NCBI GenBank assembly: GCA_965207065.1
Contig: OZ242260.1
Location: 2,368,001-2,432,000 of the forward strand
Direction of reading: 5' to 3'
DNA: 64,000 bases
DNA from: a bacterium
Lineage (GTDB): Bacteria > UBA8248
This document shows, piece by piece, positions 10,235 through 23,732 of the stretch. The position numbers and the translations under genes were made by a program. The notes beneath the pieces were generated by a model. It searched no databases and was not told the DNA's origin. It was given only the letters and a program-made list of their open reading frames with translations. The stretch's first letter is position 1. Each line of letters starts with the position of its first letter.

Positions 10235-11254
10235 ATGACGCCGCAGCGAATCGCCGTAATCGGCGCCGGCGCCTGGGGGACGGCCCTGGCGGATTCGTTC
10301 GCAGAAACCGGCCACGAGGTGATGCTCTGGGTTTTCGAGGCCGACCTTTGCGCCCGCATGGCGTCCCACGGTGAAAACGACCTGTATCTCCCCGGAATCA
10401 CCCTGCATGAGAATTTGCGTTTCACCTCCGATCTGGCCGAAGCCGCCTCGGCGGGGCAGGACGTTCTCGTGAGCGTGATGCCGAGCCACGTCGTCCGGGC
10501 GGTGTGGACGAAGCTGGCGGCCTGGGTTCACGAGGAAACGCTCATTGCAAGCGCCACGAAGGGGGTGGAAGAGAAAACTCTGCTCCTGCCCACCCGGATT
10601 ATCACCGAATGCATCGGTGCGGCGGGCGGCGCCGAGCGCGCCCTCGCTTGCCTCTCGGGGCCGACGTTCGCCCGAGAACTCGCGGAGAGAAAACCCACGG
10701 CCATCACGGCGGCGTCCGAAGATCCCGAAGTGGCGAACGCGATTCAGGAGATGCTCTCGGCCCCCAATTTCAGGATATACACGGGCGCCGATCCGGTCGG
10801 CGCGCAGCTCGGCGGTGCGCTCAAGAACGTCATCGCCCTGGCGGCGGGAGTCGCCGACGGCATGGAACTTGGGTTTAACGCGCGGGCGGCGCTCATCGTG
10901 CGCGGGCTGGCGGAAATCGCGCGTCTCGGGGTGGCGATGGGCGGCCGGGCGGAGACCTTCGCGGGCTTGGCGGGCATGGGCGATCTGGTGCTCACCTGCA
11001 CGGGCGATCTGAGCCGGAACAGGACGGTGGGCGTGCGGCTGGGGCAGGGCGAGCCCTTGCAGAAGATACTCGAATCCATGACGGCCGTGGCCGAGGGCGT
11101 ATCCACAGCACCTGCGGCCGTGGGGCTCGCGGATAAGCACGGCGTGGAGATGCCCATATGCCGCGAGGTGCACGCCGTGTTGTTCGAGGGCCGGAACCCC
11201 GGGGACGCCGTGCGGGACCTCATGGCGCGTCCGCTCCGGGCCGAGCTCCCCTAG
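10235..11254 (+). CDS. gpsA: NAD(P)H-dependent glycerol-3-phosphate dehydrogenase
   Basis: GAGAWGTALA, LSGPTFA, GGALKNVIA, GMGDLVLTCTGDLSRNR. Confidence 0.95.
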   Translation: MTPQRIAVIGAGAWGTALADSFAETGHEVMLWVFEADLCARMASHGENDLYLPGITLHENLRFTSDLAEAASAGQDVLVSVMPSHVVRAVWTKLAAWVHEETLIASATKGVEEKTLLLPTRIITECIGAAGGAERALACLSGPTFARELAERKPTAITAASEDPEVANAIQEMLSAPNFRIYTGADPVGAQLGGALKNVIALAAGVADGMELGFNARAALIVRGLAEIARLGVAMGGRAETFAGLAGMGDLVLTCTGDLSRNRTVGVRLGQGEPLQKILESMTAVAEGVSTAPAAVGLADKHGVEMPICREVHAVLFEGRNPGDAVRDLMARPLRAELP

Positions 11255-11786
11255 GGGGCCGCGCCCAGATGCGGGCAGTTGCGGGCAAATGCGCGGGAGG
11301 CGAAAAACTTTTTTGCCGCCGGATCTGAGTGTGATGCGCTCATATATGTATGATAACTCTTTGTATTAAAATCAATTACAGCAGACATGATTTTCAGGAA
11401 TTTATCGAAAAACCCCGTGAATTTATCGAATTTTATCGAAAATAGGATTATTTTCATTTCTGCGCCGTCCTTGAATCCATCCGCGCGATTCCTTTTTTCG
11501 CGATAATCGAAGCCGAGCGAGGAGGGCGGGTTCACGCTTCTGTAGAGGCAGCTCGCGAGCTGCCCGTGTTCTTCAGAAGATGGATGGGTCGTTCCGGCGG
11601 AGAATGCAGCAATCACCGCCTTCACTCTCGCCCAAATGCCTGATTCCATGAGAATGCCCCTCTCCCGTCAGCCCGATTCCAACCTGTGCGCAAGAAATCG
11701 TTTTCCCGCGTCGCGCGCACGATAGCGCAGACGTGGATTTCAGCGAATACGGCAATTGCGGGCAAATGCGCGGCGTGTTGTTTGTT

Positions 11787-11861
11787 GTAGGGGCGGACCC
11801 CTGTGTCCGCCCTAATGCGTTAGAGGGTAACGATACCGTAGGGGCGGCTCGCGAGCCGCCC
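11787..11861 (+). repeat. Two GTAG-type REP palindromes
   Basis: GTAG-GGGCGGAC-CCCTGT-GTCCGCCC (11787-11812) and GTAG-GGGCGGCT-CGCG-AGCCGCCC (11838-11861). Confidence 0.8.
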
Positions 11862-12015
11862 GCGGGTTTGGGCAATCACAAAAACCGCCGGTTGACCACC
11901 ACATATAAGGCCCATACCGAGCCGCTCCTTGCGCATCCCAACGCAATCGGCGAAAATTGAAAGCCATGAGTCCGGTTTCGCAGGAGTCTTATCCATCAAT
12001 ACCTGGAGATTATTC

Positions 12016-12765
12016 ATGGAGCTAATCCGAGGGTGGGAATCGCAATATGCCCCGGAGAAGACTGGGCGGATTCGTCTTTCCAAAGCGACGTTTTACCGTG
12101 ATATCGATACGCCCGTTTCCGGTATCCGTGACGAGAAGGAGGGGGAGACCAGAGTAGGCATGGAAGGGAGAGTAACGAGGGAGGGAGAGGGCAACCTGTT
12201 TGGCTTACCGGAAATGACCTTTACAATCGTGGAAGATGGTGAGGAGACTGTCGCCCATTTGAAAGAAGGAAGCAAAACGGCAACCTACAGGCAGGAGTTG
12301 CGGACGGAGATTCATCCGGTCCCGTACGTGTTCTGCACATCGAGAAAACCGGAATCTACAGACGAAGAAAGAAGGCTGAAAGAGGCTTTTTCCAATAAGT
12401 ATGATGCATGGTACGTCATCAAGGACGCGGACGCTCTCGGAAGGGAGTTGGAGAAGGCCATCAATGGCTGGCTGTTTGATCAGCAAGTGACGGAACGTGG
12501 ATTGACCAAGCGTTACGGCTGGGTGAGCTACTATGAGGGAGAGAATCCAAAGATTGTTGCAGACATGACTGATGAGGAATGGGGAAGCAAAGTTACAGGT
12601 TATCTTGCCTCGATGGAGGCATGGTTCAAAAAGAGAAAAAAATACGAAGCAGAAGCAGAATACAGGTACGCCTACGTCATAGAAAGCCCACAGTTGAGTA
12701 CGCTCCCGGATCACATCTTTCTGGACCTCACCATGTCCGCCATCAAGCTGTTTGAGAAGATTTAG
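12016..12765 (+). CDS. Hypothetical protein (possible R-S-E-type ADP-ribosyltransferase fold / DUF2971-like)
   Basis: SD GGAG then ATG; lower GC than flanks; LIRG, YVFCTS and FKKRKKYEAEAEYR motifs; the function is inference only. Confidence 0.6.
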   Translation: MELIRGWESQYAPEKTGRIRLSKATFYRDIDTPVSGIRDEKEGETRVGMEGRVTREGEGNLFGLPEMTFTIVEDGEETVAHLKEGSKTATYRQELRTEIHPVPYVFCTSRKPESTDEERRLKEAFSNKYDAWYVIKDADALGRELEKAINGWLFDQQVTERGLTKRYGWVSYYEGENPKIVADMTDEEWGSKVTGYLASMEAWFKKRKKYEAEAEYRYAYVIESPQLSTLPDHIFLDLTMSAIKLFEKI

Positions 12766-12800
12766 AATGCCCTTGGCAGCCCCTTAGATTCGGCCTTATA

Positions 12801-13128
12801 GGGGTTGTTGAAAAACCCCCCTCGATGCGGGAAAACCACCGTCATTCCGGCGAAAGCCGGAATCCATTTATGATTTTTACTTTCGTTTTCGCATTTGATT
12901 CCGACTTGCGGGAGGTCAAACGCGACCGATGAGGGAGCGTATGCCGCGCCTGAATCCGGAACGGATGAGGCGGATATATGTGACGGCGGCCCTATCTTCC
13001 TCGCCGGTAGCGAGAACGTCCGGGCGAAAGGCCAAAGACAAAGGTGAAAATGGATTCCGGCTTTCGCCGGAATGACGAGCAAAGGCGGAGGTCAATCTCA
13101 AGCGAAGCGAGGCTTTTTCAACAGCCCC
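12801..13128. mobile_element. MITE-like non-autonomous element with 15-bp terminal inverted repeats and an internal inverted palindrome pair
   Basis: GGGGTTGTTGAAAAA...TTTTTCAACAGCCCC (1 mismatch); internal GTCATTCCGGCGAAAGCCGGAATCCA (12841-12866) and its exact reverse complement (13051-13076). Confidence 0.7.
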
Positions 13129-13194
13129 GTATAGGGCGTTATTCTACAACCTAAATGAGGGAGGGGTTGCTGTTTTACAGGGCTGTCGGTCTTC

Positions 13195-13909
13195 CGTAGG
13201 GGCGGACCCCTGTGTCCGCCCGCGCCTGGAGAAAGCAAGAACGCATTCCCGCTCGAAACCCCGCCCGTCGCTTGACAGCCCGTAAGCCTCGAAAGCAATA
13301 TCCAGACACTGCGATACAAAACGCCACAGACCCTGAACGATGTGGGTCCACGAGGTTGTATCCCGGCGAGGGGGATGCGACATGCCGTGTGGACCTGTGA
13401 CCCGATATATAACCCGCACCTGCGAGCGTCTGTCCGCGGGTTATCCTCAAGCCACGTTCCATCCTCGTTATAAAAACAATTCCGCCGTGCGGGTGGGGTC
13501 CATTTTATCCGGCAAGGGCGGCAAAATGTCTCGCTTCAAAGACTCGACGGCGTAGCCAGGCATGACCAACTGGAAAAACCGCACGATGTGGACGGGGGAC
13601 AACCTCGACATCATGCGCGGCATGAACTCCGAGAGCGTCGACCTCATCTATTTGGACCCTCCCTTTAATAGCAAGCACAACTACGCTGCGCCGATAGGAA
13701 GCGAGGCCGCGGGAGCGGAGTTCAAGGATACTTGGACGCTCAGCGATATTGCGGTGGAATGGCACGGCCTCATCGCGGACGAGAACCCCGAACTCTACAA
13801 GGTCATCGACGCCACCATGACGAATTCGGACCGCGCATACATCATCTACATGGCGATCCGTCTTCTTGAAATGAGGCGCATCTTGAAATCCACGGGGTCG
13901 ATATATCTC
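13195..13909 (+). repeat. Copy 1 of a ~715-bp direct repeat (REP + promoter + structured leader + MTase 5' end)
   Basis: 13195-13333 is identical to 15390-15528; homology continues with divergence to 13909/16100. Confidence 0.92.
13272..13301 (+). promoter_or_regulatory. Putative sigma70 promoter in the duplicated module (second copy 15467-15496)
   Basis: TTGACA-18 bp-CAATAT, identical in both copies. Confidence 0.45.
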
Positions 13910-14773
13910 CATTGCGACCCCACGATGAGCCATTATCTGAAACTAGTCATGGATTCGATATTCGGGAGAAAGAATTTTAGAAATGAAATCGTGTGGAGCT
14001 ATCAAAGGTGGACAGGTGCAACACGACATTTTCAACGAATGCACGATATTGTGCTTATGTTCGCGCGCTCAAATGAATCGACATTCAATCAGCTTCTTGA
14101 ACCACATAGTCAGAAAGGACTATTTCGTCACAAGGGGAAAAATAGGACAACGCGCATTACGCAAGAAGGTTCACTTAGCCAAACGTATGTGGACAATAGT
14201 GGATTAAAGGCTATGCGTGATGTATGGGAAATCTCATTCTTGAACGCAAACGCGAAAGAGCGTGTTGGCTACCCCACACAGAAACCCTTGGCCCTGTTGG
14301 ATCGCATCATCAATGCCTCATCGAATCCCGAAGATGTAATTCTCGATCCATTCTGCGGATGTGCCACGGCTTGCATTGCGGCGGAAAAAAACGTGCGCGA
14401 ATGGGTGGGGATCGACATATCACCCAAGGCGGTGGACTTGGTGAAATCAAGAATGGTGAATGAGCTCGGCATGTTCGGCCAGGTGATTCACCGGACGGAC
14501 ATTCCCAGGCGAACCGACATCGTGGACTTCCCCGTCTACAAGACCCACAAGCATACGCTCTACGGGCTGCAGGAAGGCCGATGCAATGGATGCAAGGTTC
14601 ACTTCCCGTTCCGAAACTTCACGATTGACCATATCGTGCCGCAATCAAGAGGTGGGCAAGACCACATAGAGAACCTGCAACTACTCTGCGGCGCGTGCAA
14701 CTCCATGAAGGGTGCTGGAACCATGGCGGAACTGCTCGCCAAACTGAAAGAACAGAATATGCTGGCCGGATAA
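13562..14773 (+). CDS. Beta-class amino (N6A/N4C) DNA methyltransferase fused to a C-terminal HNH endonuclease
   Basis: DLIYLDPPF (motif IV), YPTQKP, DPFCGCATA (motif I); CNGC...TIDHIVPQSRGGQDHIENLQLLCGACNSMK HNH with two CxxC. Confidence 0.9.
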   Translation: MTNWKNRTMWTGDNLDIMRGMNSESVDLIYLDPPFNSKHNYAAPIGSEAAGAEFKDTWTLSDIAVEWHGLIADENPELYKVIDATMTNSDRAYIIYMAIRLLEMRRILKSTGSIYLHCDPTMSHYLKLVMDSIFGRKNFRNEIVWSYQRWTGATRHFQRMHDIVLMFARSNESTFNQLLEPHSQKGLFRHKGKNRTTRITQEGSLSQTYVDNSGLKAMRDVWEISFLNANAKERVGYPTQKPLALLDRIINASSNPEDVILDPFCGCATACIAAEKNVREWVGIDISPKAVDLVKSRMVNELGMFGQVIHRTDIPRRTDIVDFPVYKTHKHTLYGLQEGRCNGCKVHFPFRNFTIDHIVPQSRGGQDHIENLQLLCGACNSMKGAGTMAELLAKLKEQNMLAG

Positions 14774-14836
14774 CGGCATATTCGATGCACTGCCCGTTAT
14801 CAGCAAAGAGGCTAAGCCCAAGCAGGAGGATATGGG

Positions 14837-15199
14837 ATGACTATGTTTCAAAGGGCATCACAGGTTTATTGGTTGCTTACAGGTGCGGCTAAAGATAGAA
14901 AGACCTATACCTATTTCAACATCGAGGGATTCACCGGGATGGATAGAAGGGGAATTGGACAACCCCTTGGTCCAATCACCGTGTATTGCATGGTCAACGA
15001 TCTTCCCCTTTTAACGGTTCTCGCCGTCAATGCAAAAACAGGCGCTCCTTGGGGGCACTATTACGACGATATCGAAGATATCAATTCTTACCGAGAGCAG
15101 GTTTTCAATTTCGATTGGTTCAAGATTCCCCCGCCACAAACCGACGACTTCGAGGCCGTGTACAAGAGCCACTCTCATTTGCTTGAGGAGCAGGCATGA
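14837..15199 (+). CDS. Small hypothetical protein, predicted winged-helix-like
   Basis: SD AGGAGG; KTYTY...GIGQPLG..YC..NDLPLLTVLAVNAKTGAP pattern. Confidence 0.6.
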   Translation: MTMFQRASQVYWLLTGAAKDRKTYTYFNIEGFTGMDRRGIGQPLGPITVYCMVNDLPLLTVLAVNAKTGAPWGHYYDDIEDINSYREQVFNFDWFKIPPPQTDDFEAVYKSHSHLLEEQA

Positions 15200-15225
15200 C
15201 AGTGGAGAGGTGAATAGTTCCCCAC

Positions 15226-15339
15226 CTATCCACCTCTCAGATACACGCGCAAATTACCTAGGCACTCGCCCCAGCCTCCCTAGTGCTCATCGCGCATGTT
15301 CTCATGCGGGAATCCCTAGTGGGTGAGGACGACCGCGCT
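15226..15339 (-). pseudogene. Decayed 3' fragment of an SRPBCC/Aha1 gene paralogous to 23289-23732
   Basis: Translates SAVVLTH*GFPHENMRDEH*GGWGECLGNLRVYLRGG* versus TAVVLTHEGFPDENMRDEHQGGWDECLENLSAYLGAG*; two internal TAG. Confidence 0.85.
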
Positions 15340-15389
15340 CGCGGCGACCTTGCCCGCCTGGGCCGAGGAAGGACGAAAGATTGTGCCTT

Positions 15390-16100
15390 CGTAGGGGCGG
15401 ACCCCTGTGTCCGCCCGCGCCTGGAGAAAGCAAGAACGCATTCCCGCTCGAAACCCCGCCCGTCGCTTGACAGCCCGTAAGCCTCGAAAGCAATATCCAG
15501 ACACTGCGATACAAAACGCCACAGACCCGGAACGATGTGGGTCCACGAGATTGTATCCCGATGAGGGGGATGCGGTATGCCGTGTGGACCTGCGATCCGA
15601 TACGAAACCCGCCCGCGCGAGTGGCTGTCCACGGGGTATCCCCGCGTTAAGTTTTTTCCCCATTACGAAAGCGATACCGCCGGGCATACAGCGTCCTTGT
15701 CCTTCGGCGCGGCGAAATGTCGCGCCGCATGGGCTTTGCGGCGTAGCCCGGCATGGCCAACTGGAAGAACCGCACGATGTGGACGGGGGACAACCTCGAC
15801 ATCGTGCGCGGCATGAACTCAGAATCCGTCGACCTCATCTATTTAGACCCTCCCTTCAACAGCAAGCACAACTACGCCGCGCCGGTAGGAAGCGAGGCCG
15901 CAGGCGCCGAGTTCAAGAATACCTGGACGCTGAGCGATATTGCGGTGGAATGGCATGGCCTCATCGCGGACGAGAACCCGGAACTCTACAAGGTTATCGA
16001 CGCCACCATCACGCATTCGGATCGCGCCTGCATCATCTACATGGCGATCCGCCTGCTCGAAATGAGGCGCATCCTGAAATCCACGGAGTCGAAATATCTC
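15390..16100 (+). repeat. Copy 2 of the ~715-bp direct repeat
   Basis: Offset 2195 bp from copy 1; first 139 bp identical. Confidence 0.92.
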
Positions 16101-16130
16101 TATAATTGGAGAAAACCACTTGCGAAATAA
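15753..16130 (+). pseudogene. Truncated DNA methyltransferase (N-terminal ~115 aa only)
   Basis: Near-identical to the 13562 protein up to ILKST(G/E)S(I/K)YL, then stops; lacks the central variable region, motif I and HNH. Confidence 0.85.
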
Positions 16131-17514
16131 AAATCGTTCCACTCAAAAGGCATTCAGCGTTCTTCTCTCGTTCGCTTTGCTATTGCCCGGCTGTGGGGGT
16201 GGAGGCGGTGGTGGAAGCGGGAGTGGACGCGGTCCGGACGTATTCCACAATACGGCACATGTTGTAGCGGGACCGAATCAGACGATCGAAGACGCCAGGC
16301 AAGCACCTGTCATAGACTTTGACGGAACGCTTCATATCGGAGCCGGCGTTGAGCCGGACAGGAATGAACTCGGGACGACGGGTGAACATGGCAATGCAGC
16401 CATATACTCAGGTAATGTGCGAGACGGGGCGGGTCGTGATGCTACTGTTGCTTTCATCAGCCAGTTCTTTACGAACCGTAAGAGGCTTAGATCATTCCTG
16501 GATCAACCCGTTGTTCGGGTCGCCCGGGGGACATCTGACGCGCATACGGAATTGGCAGTCCGCGCCGTCCAGATACTCAATGCCTATCTTCCCCGTGAGA
16601 ACCGGATGATATTCAGCGAAATCCCAGCGACATACGGAGCCGATCTTGTTGATATTCCCGACGGAGAAATTCATATCTATTTCGGTCCATTTGGAGTACA
16701 GACTCCAGCAAACTTTGGGACATATCGAGGTGTATCATCTACCGCTACCGCTGGTGGGGGAATCATTGCGGTAGCTTCGCGCATATGGATAAATACGAAC
16801 CGACAGCACGAATTTACGTATGAGGCCAATATTTCCTCTATGGCCCATGAACTGATGCACTCTCTCGCATTCAGTGGACACCCGGACTCTGCCAGATATC
16901 GTGATTCACTCATGCGCCATAGATCTCCACGTGGTTTCTCGAGACGAATCCTGGGGCCGATAGACCGTGATGCAATTGCTGCGGCTTTCGAGTATCACTA
17001 CACGGCTACGTCGGCGAACGAGCTCGGGCCATGGAGCGATACTTCATTTCACCTACGTGGCGATATGGATGACGTATCATTCGGTATTGCATCTTTTAAC
17101 GGCTTGCTGCAGCCGTGGGCATCCGGTCCGAGACCGGAAACGGATCTGGCGGATAATCAGGCTTTATCGGGAAGCGCAAGCTGGACTGGCAGGCTCCTGG
17201 GGTTCACTACCGAATCGGAATCGCTCGCCGGAGCGGCGGATCTCACCATCAGCCTCGCAACGCTCAGGGGACAGATTGACTTCACCGGCCTCGAGCACTG
17301 GGGCGTGAATGCGACGCCGGGGCCTGTCGGCTCAGGCCAGACCTGGAATGATGGCGACCTGCGCTACAGCGTCATCGTCCGGGGCAATACGTTCACGCAG
17401 ACGGGCGGCGACACGGGCGAGGTTACGGGCGCGTTCTTCGGCCCGAATCACGAAGGGATGGGCGGTGTCGTCGAGAGAAGCGATATGTCCGCCGGGTTCG
17501 GTGGAACGCGATAG
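16120..17514 (+). CDS. Lipoprotein with zinc-metallopeptidase motif and C-terminal TbpB-like beta-barrel
   Basis: Lipobox LPGC followed by poly-Gly; AHELMHSLAFSGH and SLM; C-terminal VTGAFFGPNHEGMGGV...SAGFGGTR. Confidence 0.7.
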   Translation: MRNKNRSTQKAFSVLLSFALLLPGCGGGGGGGSGSGRGPDVFHNTAHVVAGPNQTIEDARQAPVIDFDGTLHIGAGVEPDRNELGTTGEHGNAAIYSGNVRDGAGRDATVAFISQFFTNRKRLRSFLDQPVVRVARGTSDAHTELAVRAVQILNAYLPRENRMIFSEIPATYGADLVDIPDGEIHIYFGPFGVQTPANFGTYRGVSSTATAGGGIIAVASRIWINTNRQHEFTYEANISSMAHELMHSLAFSGHPDSARYRDSLMRHRSPRGFSRRILGPIDRDAIAAAFEYHYTATSANELGPWSDTSFHLRGDMDDVSFGIASFNGLLQPWASGPRPETDLADNQALSGSASWTGRLLGFTTESESLAGAADLTISLATLRGQIDFTGLEHWGVNATPGPVGSGQTWNDGDLRYSVIVRGNTFTQTGGDTGEVTGAFFGPNHEGMGGVVERSDMSAGFGGTR

Positions 17515-17685
17515 AAAAAGAAGGGGAGGCAAGAATGATGGAGTGGTGATGGCGAAATATCGGATTTTGGACCAAGGCATTCCGGGATGATGTTCAACGA
17601 CTACGTTCACCGTAGAGCTGGCCCCCGCCTCCGCTCGTAATATTATGCTGCCACGCCCCCAAACCTACTCACCACCAACGCCCCC

Positions 17686-18522
17686 TCACACCTCGACCTC
17701 CAGCAGGTCGCGTCCCAGAATGATTTCCCCGGCAAAATCCCGCCGGACGTCCTCTTCTATCGCGCGCATGAGGCGCTCGGGTTTTTCGCGGAAATGGGTG
17801 AGGACGAGTTTCTTCACGCCCGCGTCAGCGGCGATCTTTCCCGCCTGCGCCGAGGAGGGGAACAGGTGCCGGGTCAGGCGTTCGGTGTGTGCGTCGGTCA
17901 CCTCCGCCCCGGCCAGATAACAGCACAGCACGAGGGCGTCCGCCCCCCGCGCTAGACGGTCCAGCCCCTCGCAGGGAATCGTATCCCCGCTGATGGCGAC
18001 GATTTTTCCCTCCGCCTCCAGGCGGTAGCCCAGCGTCACCCAGTCGAAATCGGGGATTCCCAGCCCCTGCCCGTGCTCGACGAACTCCGCATACACCTTC
18101 CAGCCCCCGCCCTCACAAACGAGGCCCGCGCCGATCTCGCGCACCTCCACCGGCTTCCACCCCCCTATGGCGGGTTCTCCCTCGGCCCGGAAGCGGATAT
18201 CCTTCGCGTAGACCCTTTCGATCAGGGCTGTGACGACTTCCGCCGTTCCCGCCGGCCCGTATACGCGCAAGGCGCCCGGACGGCCCTGTAGCCAAGTGCT
18301 CAGGATCACGTCGCCCAGGTCGCTGATGTGGTCGTAATGATGATGGGTGATGAAGACCGGATTCACTTCTTTAAGAGGCGCGCCCGCGCGCACGAGCTGG
18401 GTCACCGCCCCGCGGCCGCAGTCGAAGAGCAGCCGCTCCTCACCGGTGTGGACCACGAGGGAAGACCCCAGGCGCGCCGGGTCCGGCCGGGGGCCGCCCG
18501 TGCCGAGCAGGGTGATCTTCAT
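17686..18522 (-). CDS. MBL-fold hydrolase, RNase Z/arylsulfatase-like
   Basis: MKITLLGTGGP, LFDCGRG, THHHYDH, VYGP, ISGDT, LVLTHF; ATGA overlap with tctA. Confidence 0.88.
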   Translation of the reverse strand: MKITLLGTGGPRPDPARLGSSLVVHTGEERLLFDCGRGAVTQLVRAGAPLKEVNPVFITHHHYDHISDLGDVILSTWLQGRPGALRVYGPAGTAEVVTALIERVYAKDIRFRAEGEPAIGGWKPVEVREIGAGLVCEGGGWKVYAEFVEHGQGLGIPDFDWVTLGYRLEAEGKIVAISGDTIPCEGLDRLARGADALVLCCYLAGAEVTDAHTERLTRHLFPSSAQAGKIAADAGVKKLVLTHFREKPERLMRAIEEDVRRDFAGEIILGRDLLEVEV

Positions 18523-20027
18523 TCTTCCTCCTCCGGCGGGAAGTGCGGGGCGCTCCTGCCGCGCGTGAAAAAGGGATAAAGCAGAAGAATCGCCGAGGCG
18601 ATCCACGCGAGCAGGGCGAGGGGGTGCTCGATGAAGGTTTCATAACTCCCGCGCGATATGACGAGCGACTGGCGCACCTTTTCCTCAAAAAGCCTGCCCA
18701 GGACGAACGCGAGCACGAGCGGAGCGCCCGGATAGCTCAGCTTGCGCATCATGTAGCCCAGCAGCCCGAAGACGGCCATGAGCAGGACGTCGGTCGGGTT
18801 GTTGCTCACGCTGTAGGCGCCGATTCCGCAGAACAGGAGAATCATGGGCCAGAGGTAGCGGTAGGGCACGGTGAGCAGGCGCGCCCACATGCCCACCAGC
18901 GGCAGGTTGAGCAGCAGAAGCAGCGCGTTTCCGGTGTACATGCTCGTCACCACCCCCCAGAAGATGGCGGGGTGCTCGGTGATCATGAGGGGGCCGGGCT
19001 GCACGCCGTGGGTGAGAAAGGCCGCCGTCAGAACGGCCACCGCAGCGCTCGGGGCGATGCCCAGCGTGAGGAGGGGTATCATGCTGCCCGCCGTGGCGGA
19101 GTTGTTGGCCGCCTCTGGCCCCGCCACGCCTTCTATCACGCCCGTGCCGAATTTCTCGGGTCTTTTGGAGATGCGCCGCTCGAGAGAGTAGGAGAGAAAA
19201 GGGGGCACGATGGTGCCCATGCCGGGCAGGATCCCCATGAAAAAGCCGACGACGCTGCCTCGCCCGATGGCCGGTGCGGAGTCGCGCCAATCCTGTCGCG
19301 TGGGCCACAACCCCTTGATGCGGCCCTTGAACACTTCCATCTTCTCCTCTTTCTCCAGGTTGATCAGCACCTCCGAAATGCCGAACAGGCCGATTACCAG
19401 GGGCGCGAAGCCCACCCCGTCCATCAGGGTGAAGGTGCCGAAATCATAGCGCGGCGTGGATTCCACCGGGTCCAGGCCGACCGTGGATAGGAGGAACCCG
19501 AGCAGGGCGGACGCCGCGGCGCGCGGGCGCGATCCGCCGCTGAACTGGATTACCAGCAGGAAGCTCAGGCACAGGAGCGCGACCAGTTCCGGCGGGCCGA
19601 TCTTCACCGCCATCTCGGCCAGGGCGGGCGCCATGAGCGTGATGCCCAGAACCCCCAGCGTTCCCGCGATGAACGAGCCCCATGCGCAGATGGCGAGCGC
19701 CGGTCCCGCTCTCCCCTGCCGCGCCATCTGGTAGCCGTCCAGCGTTGTCACGACCGAAGACGCCTCGCCGGGCAGGTTGAGCAGAATCGACGTGGTGGAG
19801 CCGCCGTACATCGCCCCGTAGAACACCCCGGCCATGATGATGATGGCGGCCGTCGGTTCCATCTTGATGGTGATCGGGAGGAGGAGTGACATGGTGGCGA
19901 CCGGGCCGAGTCCCGGCAGTACCCCGATGGCCGTCCCCACGAAAACGCCCATGAAGCAGGCGAGGAGGTTGTACGGGGCGAGGCTCACCGAGAAGCCAAA
20001 ATAGAGGTTTGCGAAAAGATCGCCCAT
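18519..20027 (-). CDS. tctA: Tripartite tricarboxylate transporter permease TctA family
   Basis: IGVLPGLG, YGGSTTSILLNLPGE, EGVAGPEAANN, PLLTLGI. Confidence 0.92.
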   Translation of the reverse strand: MGDLFANLYFGFSVSLAPYNLLACFMGVFVGTAIGVLPGLGPVATMSLLLPITIKMEPTAAIIIMAGVFYGAMYGGSTTSILLNLPGEASSVVTTLDGYQMARQGRAGPALAICAWGSFIAGTLGVLGITLMAPALAEMAVKIGPPELVALLCLSFLLVIQFSGGSRPRAAASALLGFLLSTVGLDPVESTPRYDFGTFTLMDGVGFAPLVIGLFGISEVLINLEKEEKMEVFKGRIKGLWPTRQDWRDSAPAIGRGSVVGFFMGILPGMGTIVPPFLSYSLERRISKRPEKFGTGVIEGVAGPEAANNSATAGSMIPLLTLGIAPSAAVAVLTAAFLTHGVQPGPLMITEHPAIFWGVVTSMYTGNALLLLLNLPLVGMWARLLTVPYRYLWPMILLFCGIGAYSVSNNPTDVLLMAVFGLLGYMMRKLSYPGAPLVLAFVLGRLFEEKVRQSLVISRGSYETFIEHPLALLAWIASAILLLYPFFTRGRSAPHFPPEEEE

Positions 20028-23189: not shown

Positions 23190-23288
23190 GTTTTCAGGGG
23201 GGAGCTGTATTCAGACGTCCCTCGATACGGCCCTTGAGGGCCTACTCGGGATGAGGGTGTTTTTGATTACCTCATCCTGAGTAGCTCC

Positions 23289-23732
23289 CTATCCCGCTCC
23301 CAGATACGCGCTGAGATTCTCCAGGCACTCGTCCCAGCCTCCCTGGTGCTCGTCGCGCATGTTCTCGTCCGGGAATCCCTCGTGTGTAAGTACGACGGCG
23401 GTCTCATCACCCTCATCAAAAAAATCGATGCTCACCCGGGTTTCGGGGTAATCCCAATCGCCCCGTTCCCAGCGGAAGGTGAATACGAGCCGCTCGGGCG
23501 GCCTGATTTCGACGAATTCCCCGTTGAGATAAAAAGACTCATCCTCATCCGTCCGCATCTCGACGCGGTATTTCCCGCCGATTCTCAAATCCATCTCGGC
23601 GCTGGGCACGGTGTGGCCCTCCGTTCCCCACCATTGCTTTAGGGCGTCCGCCTGCGTCCAAGCGGCGAATACTCTCTCCCTGGGCGCCTGGAAGGTTCGT
23701 TTGATGAGAAGGGTCATTTTTGTTTCGATCAT
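23289..23732 (-). CDS. SRPBCC/Aha1-like domain protein
   Basis: RTFQAPRERVFAAWT, DLRIGGKYR, PPERLVFTF, GW..CLENL. Confidence 0.9.
   Translation of the reverse strand: MIETKMTLLIKRTFQAPRERVFAAWTQADALKQWWGTEGHTVPSAEMDLRIGGKYRVEMRTDEDESFYLNGEFVEIRPPERLVFTFRWERGDWDYPETRVSIDFFDEGDETAVVLTHEGFPDENMRDEHQGGWDECLENLSAYLGAG

Follow-up and report, generated by a model that had tools for sequence, protein, structure and literature searches.

Tandem duplications mediated by repetitive extragenic palindromic (REP) sequences are known in enterobacteria (Salmonella, E. coli). Target-recognition domains are exchanged between the methyltransferase alleles of restriction-modification (R-M) systems via conserved flanks, as in Type I hsdS and Type III mod, and promoter reuse or 'mobile promoters' occur upstream of unrelated genes. 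A direct repeat that shares traits with each of these is situated in a 64,000-nucleotide (nt) stretch of an uncultured bacterium (GTDB lineage Bacteria; UBA8248; GenBank assembly GCA_965207065.1, contig OZ242260.1, positions 2,368,001 to 2,432,000 of the forward strand), which is referred to as the window and numbered from its first letter. An earlier note had described the repeat as a module of about 715 bp, composed of a REP, a promoter, a leader and the front part of a methyltransferase (MTase) gene, in front of two different payloads, and had proposed a recombination platform able to excise, amplify or swap the R-M cassette.

The analysis presented here leads, with moderate confidence, to the view that the repeat consists of two adjacent homologous cassettes that differ in age, and that it represents neither an in-place duplication nor a dedicated recombination device. 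A live gene encoding a methyltransferase fused to an HNH domain (MTase-HNH) is followed by the front end of a related cassette, and the arrangement of this second copy is also found on a metagenome contig, L118. The two copies comprise the following features:

13195–13333, + strand: copy 1 REP (13196–13221) and promoter-like block, identical to 15390–15528
13334–13561, + strand: copy 1 leader, with 85% falling to 68% identity with copy 2
13562–14773, + strand: intact MTase-HNH fusion of 403 amino acids (aa), Pfam PF01555 (N6_N4_Mtase) plus HNH
14837–15199, + strand: ORF120, an open reading frame (ORF) of 120 aa belonging to a rare family, with a strong ribosome-binding site
15390–15528, + strand: copy 2 REP (15391–15416) and promoter-like block, 94.2% identical to L118
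15529–15752, + strand: copy 2 leader, constrained relative to the adjacent stub in the comparison with L118
15753–16130, + strand: MTase stub, with homology over 117 codons (to 16102), followed by 8 codons of foreign sequence up to the stop
16120–17514, + strand: lipoprotein gene of 464 aa, with LLLPGC, a glycine run and HELMH in its translation

A repeat search and the pairwise alignment of 13150–14000 with 15345–16200 confirmed the direct repeat (13195–13912 versus 15390–16102) and bore out the anatomy given in the earlier note. The offset is 2195 nt and becomes 2191 nt past a 4-nt indel in the leader, and the repeat search returned two 300-nt families with spacings of 2195 and 2191 nt. The 26-nt REP, GTAGGGGCGGACCCCTGTGTCCGCCC, starts at 13196 and 15391, and in both copies the edge of homology lies one base 5′ of it. 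Upstream of the REP the two copies share no related sequence, so that the REP indeed forms the 5′ boundary, as had been claimed. Downstream of this edge the identity is distributed unevenly (copy-1 coordinates):

13195–13333: 139 of 139 positions identical
13334–13420: 74 of 87
13421–13489: 47 of 69
13490–13561: 46 of 68, plus the 4-nt gap
13562–13912, coding: 318 of 351

The overall difference between the copies is about 13%, with an identity of 68% in the distal leader and of 90.6% in the 117 MTase codons. At the 85% identity of the neighbouring block, 139 identical bases in a row have a probability of 1.5e-10. Copy 1 continues into the complete MTase-HNH gene and the small gene ORF120. Homology of copy 2 ends after 16102, in line with the break that the earlier note had placed at 16100, and the stop codon of the stub (16128–16130) overlaps the unrelated lipoprotein gene, which starts with TTG at 16120.

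Within the MTase coding part (116 codons), the two copies differ by 21 synonymous and 11 non-synonymous changes, corresponding to a synonymous divergence (dS) of 0.36, a non-synonymous divergence (dN) of 0.041 and a ratio omega of 0.11. Copy 1, copy 2 and the orthologue of the related genome G002 are equally far apart; their private changes number 15, 15 and 18, respectively. Protein-altering changes account for 0 of the 15 private changes in copy 1 and for 9 of the 15 in copy 2, a pattern indicating that copy 1 is under purifying selection and that copy 2 has long been drifting. In-place tandem duplication by unequal crossing-over between REPs, followed by loss of most of the second unit and long divergence, would account for the join at 15389/15390, which coincides with a REP, and for the presence of all three exact REP copies within the islet. 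As in the REP-mediated duplications of Salmonella and E. coli, homology starts at the REP, and a REP is found at the join between the units. In contrast to those duplications, however, the units are not near-identical throughout: a dS of 0.36, copies equidistant from G002 and 68% leader identity beside 139 identical bases would imply a pair so old that its loss or homogenisation would be expected. Moreover, the second unit is a stub that also occurs alone in L118, with the same junction and 91% identity. Such a duplication is thus quite unlikely.

Contig L118 was retrieved with a degenerate promoter pattern; an exact 45-mer scan of metagenome contigs had given 0 matches. The window segment 15329–16214 aligns to it over 887 nt at 91% identity, and this alignment covers a fragment of the neighbouring MBL-fold (metallo-beta-lactamase fold) gene, the REP, the promoter-like block, the leader, the stub, the identical junction and the 5′ end of the lipoprotein gene. 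No second module is present within the 7 kb of L118, and its stub contains two 1-nt deletions and a stop at codon 21. The data already point to a split between copy 1 and copy 2 that preceded the separation of the lineages of the genome studied here (G000) and L118.

Comparison with L118 also bears on the identical block. Copy 2 is 94.2% identical to L118 in the REP and promoter-like block, 95.4% in the proximal leader, 96.4% in the distal leader, 89.4% in the stub and 90.2% at the 5′ end of the lipoprotein gene. In the first of these blocks both window copies are equally close to L118 (94.2%), whereas in the next block copy 2 reaches 95.4% and copy 1 only 82.8%. The stretches of G002 and G018 that align with the promoter and leader are only 78–80% identical to the window, so that strong constraint does not explain the 139 matches in 139 positions. 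As judged from these sequence distances, the 139-nt block is probably of copy-2 ancestry and was recently converted onto copy 1. The dead 5′ fragment adjoining a live allele, and the short identical tract within diverged homology, resemble gene relics that lie beside live paralogues in R-M and defence islets, with the difference that here the converted tract is the promoter itself. The proposed recombination platform is supported only in part: the copies have recombined at least once, as the 139-nt block within DNA of 10–32% divergence indicates, but a dedicated platform is not apparent.

The identical block contains TTGACA (13272–13277 in copy 1), an 18-nt spacer and CAATAT (13296–13301); in copy 2 the corresponding −35 and −10 elements are located at 15467–15472 and 15491–15496. 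Both hexamers are invariant across five aligned sequences, and the spacer is variable. This conservation suggests that the TTGACA/CAATAT block is the putative promoter of both transcription units. Matches to the copy-2 leader were found in 5 of 23 genomes of the genus including G000; outside G000 there are five matches in 4 of 22 genomes. In G031, in G032 and on two contigs of G018, the promoter-like block is followed by about 200 nt of leader, and the two together are situated 33–55 nt before a homologue of the lipoprotein gene (84–86% identity); no MTase fragment is present at these sites. The copy 1 leader is homologous to these pre-lipoprotein leaders up to about 13417–13490. In G002, an 85-nt promoter block stands alone directly before the MTase-HNH gene. 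One promoter-like block thus precedes the lipoprotein gene in G018, G031 and G032 and the MTase-HNH gene in G002 and G000, which is reminiscent of mobile promoters. Unlike those, the repeat runs 350 nt into homologous coding sequence, which points to common descent and conversion instead of promoter transposition. The module can hardly be regarded as a dedicated device: in relatives the lipoprotein gene is served by this promoter and leader, and what copy 2 retains of the MTase gene is a relic in decay that it has in common with L118.

Between copy 2 and L118, 215 of 224 leader positions and 313 of 350 stub positions are identical (Fisher p 0.004). With 9 differences in the leader and 37 in the stub, the leader is under constraint and read as functional, and the stub is decaying as neutral sequence. 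Here the locus departs from other gene relics beside live paralogues, since in two lineages the relic is kept as the carrier of a promoter and leader that serve a lipoprotein gene unrelated to it. The leader of about 200 nt (13300–13500 and 15495–15690 in the window; loci L092, L103, L112, L113 and L118) may represent an undescribed cis-regulatory RNA in front of lipoprotein genes. Against Rfam, at a threshold of E 1, the region 11000–17000 produced nothing beyond a chance miRNA match. Folds of single leader sequences compared with shuffled ones were not convincing (z scores of 0.15 and −1.72 for copies 1 and 2, respectively), and a fold of the alignment of six leaders predicts a long stem-loop over alignment columns 47–114 with few informative changes, which is a lead only. 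Terminator-like hairpins in both leaders occur at chance frequency only. Small ORFs within the leaders (13340–13555 and 15577–15816) found no counterpart in Pfam, and a frame common to both copies is precluded by the 4-nt indel. A motif resembling a DtxR box, noticed by eye in the promoter, was discarded for want of conservation in G018 and G002. A leader of about 220 nt that is better conserved than the adjoining sequence and belongs to no Rfam family may be worth more than the repeat itself.

The lipoprotein gene that now follows copy 2 encodes the motif LLLPGC, which we take to be lipobox-like. Identity as a Slam-dependent surface lipoprotein was not established, as the scores stay below the cut-offs (NCBIfam slam_lipo, 25.7 bits against a cut-off of 80; Pfam TbpB_B_D, 19.5 against 26); this sub-threshold resemblance resides in the C-terminus. 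The gene is a member of a multigene family in which the 5′ end (about 16098–16226) and the 3′ end (about 17015–17561) are conserved and the middle is variable. Paralogues are found in the same genome at C1:2237486–2243670 and at other sites, and in relatives the family often forms tandem arrays (L108, L109), a pattern reminiscent of variable surface proteins.

The intact gene of copy 1 encodes a protein with the domains of a beta-class N6/N4 DNA methyltransferase (PF01555) fused to HNH, from which its activity is predicted. Its reading frame is open, PF01555 is matched over positions 1–220 of 221 (E 1e-44), and HNH is matched with E values of 6e-14 to 7e-14. The segments IYLDPPF and DPFCGCATA and an HNH-like segment are presumably the catalytic and HNH motifs, and the closest solved structures are M.RsrI and M.MboIIA (E 1e-16 to 1e-14). 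At the DNA level, the 5′ part is 89% and the 3′ part 81% identical to the G002 gene, whereas the middle is without a match. The central segment (about 13930–14300) has a GC content of 42–46%, compared with 55–57% in its flanks, and at the protein level it is 77–79% identical to genes of other phyla, to which the N-terminus is only about 70% identical. A low-GC middle that is closer to other phyla than the N-terminus is fits the exchange of a recognition segment, and the layout of conserved ends around an unrelated middle corresponds to that of hsdS and mod alleles. The earlier suggestion of recognition-segment exchange through conserved flanks is therefore upheld. Copy 2 of this repeat, however, is no silent recognition-domain cassette; it ends at codon 117, ahead of the variable middle, which starts at about codon 131–138 by comparison with the strain of sequencing run X4 and with G002. 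Without a recognition domain, copy 2 cannot donate one.

This last point is one of those against a programmed recombination platform of the shufflon or phase-variation type that would excise, amplify or swap the R-M cassette. At least one past recombination between the copies, an MTase family that swaps recognition segments and the strain of run X4, which is about 95% identical and diverges from copy 1 after 13954, would all be in keeping with such a device. On the other side stand the presence of two copies only, the missing recognition domain of copy 2, the decay of the stub in two lineages and the lack of variant joints among those listed for the source-like runs X1–X3. In addition, no recombinase or transposase match was found near the locus at E values up to 10, and no relevant inverted repeats were detected. 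A programmed platform is accordingly very improbable.

Relatives of the MTase-HNH gene were found at 80 loci (37–74% identity) in metagenome-assembled genomes of many phyla. An IS1595-type transposase gene lies directly upstream at 20 of these 80 loci, and one genome contains seven copies of a 2286-bp MTase-HNH unit with 24-nt inverted ends and an 8-bp target duplication. The same cargo gene family is thus shared between copy 1 and these transporter insertion sequences (IS) of the IS1595 family. However, copy 1 has neither a transposase nor terminal inverted repeats and is situated behind a chromosomal promoter and leader. As an IS1595 cassette it was rejected: a tblastn search of the window with two IS1595-type transposases gave chance matches only (E 2.5 or worse), terminal inverted repeats of the GGGRATTATATA type are matched 10 times by pattern in the window versus 10.4 expected, and a weak inverted-end match at 15210–15222 has no partner. 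The genome contains four IS1595-type transposase genes, all outside the window. An MTase-HNH paralogue at C1:174194–176735 (L003) is apparently frameshifted and lies tail to tail with an IS1595-type transposase gene. Three MTase-HNH copies about 7.5 kb apart are found on one 23.5-kb contig (L072–L074), where the matches exceed the length of the query, suggesting an insertion or a larger middle segment. A literature search turned up no publication on MTase-HNH cargo or on the present arrangement.

ORF120 was presumably imported together with the MTase-HNH gene. Among 42 genomes of the family it is present in one only, the genome studied here, and a large protein set contains five homologues. 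A profile search located 32 loci in other phyla, and the surrounding 3.5 kb contain no MTase-HNH match at any of the 32. A fixed partnership between ORF120 and MTase-HNH was rejected, since ORF120 was not found at the 80 MTase-HNH loci; a single-sequence scan was likewise empty. In a neighbourhood scan of 46 chosen neighbouring or containing ORFs at 24 of the 32 loci (8 loci with unclear ORF layout were left out), an ORF120-like domain was found fused to HNH_2 in two proteins and to a TagI-like SRA plus HNH_2 enzyme in one (L151, L152, L153). Neighbouring genes are often of defence type and include GmrSD_C, KAP NTPase, HSDR_N and UvrD-type genes. The AlphaFold2 (AF2) model of ORF120 has a predicted local distance difference test score (pLDDT) of 86.5 and gives weak matches only (E about 0.6), which without exception fall on the DNA-binding domain of O6-alkylguanine transferases. 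As a small protein family that recurs in defence contexts, ORF120 may likewise be worth more than the repeat itself.

The earlier note had asked how often the module occurs genome-wide. The genome (4.48 Mb, one contig) yielded 15 matches, comprising the two full modules, one MTase paralogue (70% identity) and 12 short matches to the REP only; two copies are therefore all there is, which is, as far as the data go, an outcome that the note itself had named as telling against its platform. The exact 26-nt REP occurs three times in the genome, all inside the islet (the third at 11787–11812), and 18 copies are found when up to two mismatches are allowed. Nor was any deletion, circular or amplified form of the repeat seen among the joints listed from the contigs of four runs, so that the excision and amplification proposed earlier are not borne out. 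A joint in run X4 leading from 11810 to 15389, from REP to REP, was considered as a deletion variant and set aside as too weak (depth 2.65, 9 unmatched letters). In the X4 strain, about 95% identical to the window, the sequence parts from copy 1 after 13954, and its contigs give no cover of 16271–17023, a gap from which nothing was concluded.

Assembly artefact, which the earlier note had listed as a way in which its idea could fall, was examined with the same contigs. A single-contig metagenome assembly can misjoin at repeats. Runs X1 and X2 derive from one sample, possibly the source sample, and their unitigs stop at the ends of the 139-nt identical block. The block thus cannot be phased by short-read unitigs, and the order of the parts is taken from the deposited assembly; in principle, these unitigs would be equally compatible with a chromosome without the unit and a separate circle of 2195 bp. 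However, the copies are about 13% different, and contigs of X1 and X2 span 13304–13606, 13600–15419/15528, 15499–15797 and 15774–16587, covering the unique segments and both outer junctions with 0 differences and even depth. Sequence specific to copy 2 is also present in the X4 strain and in L118. Altogether, a repeat produced by misjoining is extremely improbable.

The two cassettes occupy an islet between conserved core genes, in which further features are found:

10235–11254, + strand: gpsA, left border of the islet, Pfam NAD_Gly3P_dh_N/C (E 1e-45 and 2e-55)
11787–11812, + strand: third exact copy of the 26-nt REP, repeat family D3
11929–12765, + strand: ORF of 278 aa, single copy (one tblastn match in the genome), only hypothetical clusters in Atlas
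12800–13130, no strand assigned: dispersed repeat of about 330 nt resembling a miniature inverted-repeat transposable element (MITE), with a perfect 30-nt internal inverted repeat (12840–12869 / 13048–13077)
15227–15340, − strand: 3′ relic of an ancestral 147-aa gene, 88% identical to G008 (L104 4078–4179)
15329–15372, no strand assigned: relic of the displaced 3′ end of the MBL-fold gene, 82% over 44 nt to 17816–17859
17686–18606, − strand: MBL-fold gene, right border of the islet, Pfam Lactamase_B_2 (E 2e-17), conserved in relatives

To the left, the core genes are groEL, a TonB-like gene, an iron-dependent repressor gene, a cupin gene and gpsA, the 3′ end of which is conserved in genomes of the same genus together with the downstream DNA. 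To the right, the MBL-fold gene is followed by tctA and tctC on the other strand. Parts of 11000–18000 are matched in 25 of the 31 genomes searched (G000 and 30 relatives), and the middle varies. In G003, gpsA and its downstream DNA lie about 0.5 kb from the MBL-fold gene, and in G008 a single 147-aa gene is situated between gpsA and the MBL-fold gene; the islet genes are absent from both. G002 carries in this slot an MTase-HNH gene with a different middle segment and a helix-turn-helix (HTH) gene, and in L118 a SacI-like endonuclease and a methyltransferase of the D12 class lie to the left of the module. That the slot between the core genes is variable, with different R-M genes in different lineages, is a further trait shared with gene relics beside live paralogues in R-M and defence islets. 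The syntenic slot of G002 (L106 6837–8774 and 4171–4641) also encodes a 645-aa HATPase_c_3 protein, so that this and the HTH_17 gene accompany its MTase-HNH gene, which suggests a small defence island. The 278-aa ORF has no Pfam or NCBIfam match and one weak PADLOC match (E 0.005). The MITE-like repeat has about 90 blastn matches in the genome and many in relatives of the same genus, as well as very high contig depth; variants with another inner sequence occur in contigs of other runs.

A full paralogue of the 147-aa gene is found at 23289–23732, and the relic is 82% identical to 23288–23403. Together with the MBL relic, it indicates that ancestral DNA remains between the two modules. In L118, the MBL fragment is 187 nt long (L118 3220–3406, corresponding to window 17667–17853 at 85%) and directly adjoins the REP. 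On one side of the lipoprotein unit lies the displaced partial MBL 3′ end and on the other the intact MBL-fold gene; this is the layout left by integration into a gene end, and no integrase was seen.

These relics bear on a Campbell-type entry, in which a circle containing REP, promoter, leader, MTase-HNH, ORF120 and flank would have entered by a single crossover with the resident stub module within the REP-promoter block. The order of repeat, insert and repeat, in which the intact copy precedes the truncated one, is as predicted by such an event, crossover and heteroduplex repair could have left the identical 139-nt block as their trace, and the bracketing of the lipoprotein unit by the partial MBL 3′ duplicate has the same topology. 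However, the last part of the insert (15227–15372) consists of relics of two chromosomal genes from the same locus, so that the donor of the circle must already have had the same arrangement. With neither a plasmid nor an integrase nor a circular form seen, entry of this type is unlikely.

The preferred reading, two homologous cassettes of different age, would imply the following history. An MTase-HNH gene would once have been situated behind the REP, promoter and leader of copy 2 and would later have been cut to 117 codons, the truncated copy being fused to the ribosome-binding region of the lipoprotein gene. Promoter and leader would have been retained because they now drive the lipoprotein gene. 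Copy 1 (13195–15199) would be the live REP-promoter-leader-MTase-HNH allele with ORF120, placed in a variable slot between gpsA and the ancestral relic. This slot would gain and lose R-M genes by recombination via conserved flanks, relatives holding other R-M genes, and copy 1 would most likely have arrived by exchange through flanking homology. Once the units lay 2.2 kb from each other, the first 139 nt would have been homogenised by a short gene conversion, with copy 2 as the probable donor and copy 1 as the recipient, such that both transcription units would now begin from the same promoter-like sequence. In these terms, the mosaic is ordinary and well resolved, of the kind that gene traffic leaves behind at a variable site in the genome. 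The direct repeat could permit RecA-type loss of the 2195-bp unit; this potential would be incidental, and no such event was observed.

Several points weigh against this history. The TTGACA/CAATAT block was not called by a consensus promoter scanner, its assignment as a promoter being drawn from conservation only. The promoter and leader may have been native to the MTase cassette and then captured by the lipoprotein gene, or the reverse, and G018, G031 and G032 may form one clade and hence provide few independent observations. The view of L118 is short, extending 3.5 kb to either side of the promoter match. Its stub is no closer to that of copy 2 (89.4%) than copy 1 is (90.6%); these distances fit neutral decay of both stubs against slow change in the live gene, and some gene conversion in the coding part as well is conceivable. 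How copy 1 entered we infer rather than observe. Finally, the variant search relied on contigs, which drop rare variants, and the 139-nt block is unphased.

It is also conceivable, albeit rather doubtful, that REP, promoter and leader form a regulatory module, its 5′ leader being structured, constrained and outside the known RNA families, that co-regulates a surface lipoprotein and a one-protein R-M enzyme, with repeated gene conversion keeping the promoters identical and an identical tract of 139–225 nt allowing loop-out of the 2.2-kb R-M unit and its regain by recombination. If true, this would amount to reversible on/off restriction in a sponge symbiont population.

Read as two cassettes of different age, the locus would provide a worked example of how an R-M slot is built in an uncultured symbiont. 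The dead front end of a gene would persist over long times where a neighbour depends on its promoter and leader, and gene conversion would then move the resident promoter onto a newly arrived allele. A duplicated module in front of different payloads could thus arise without dedicated recombination machinery.

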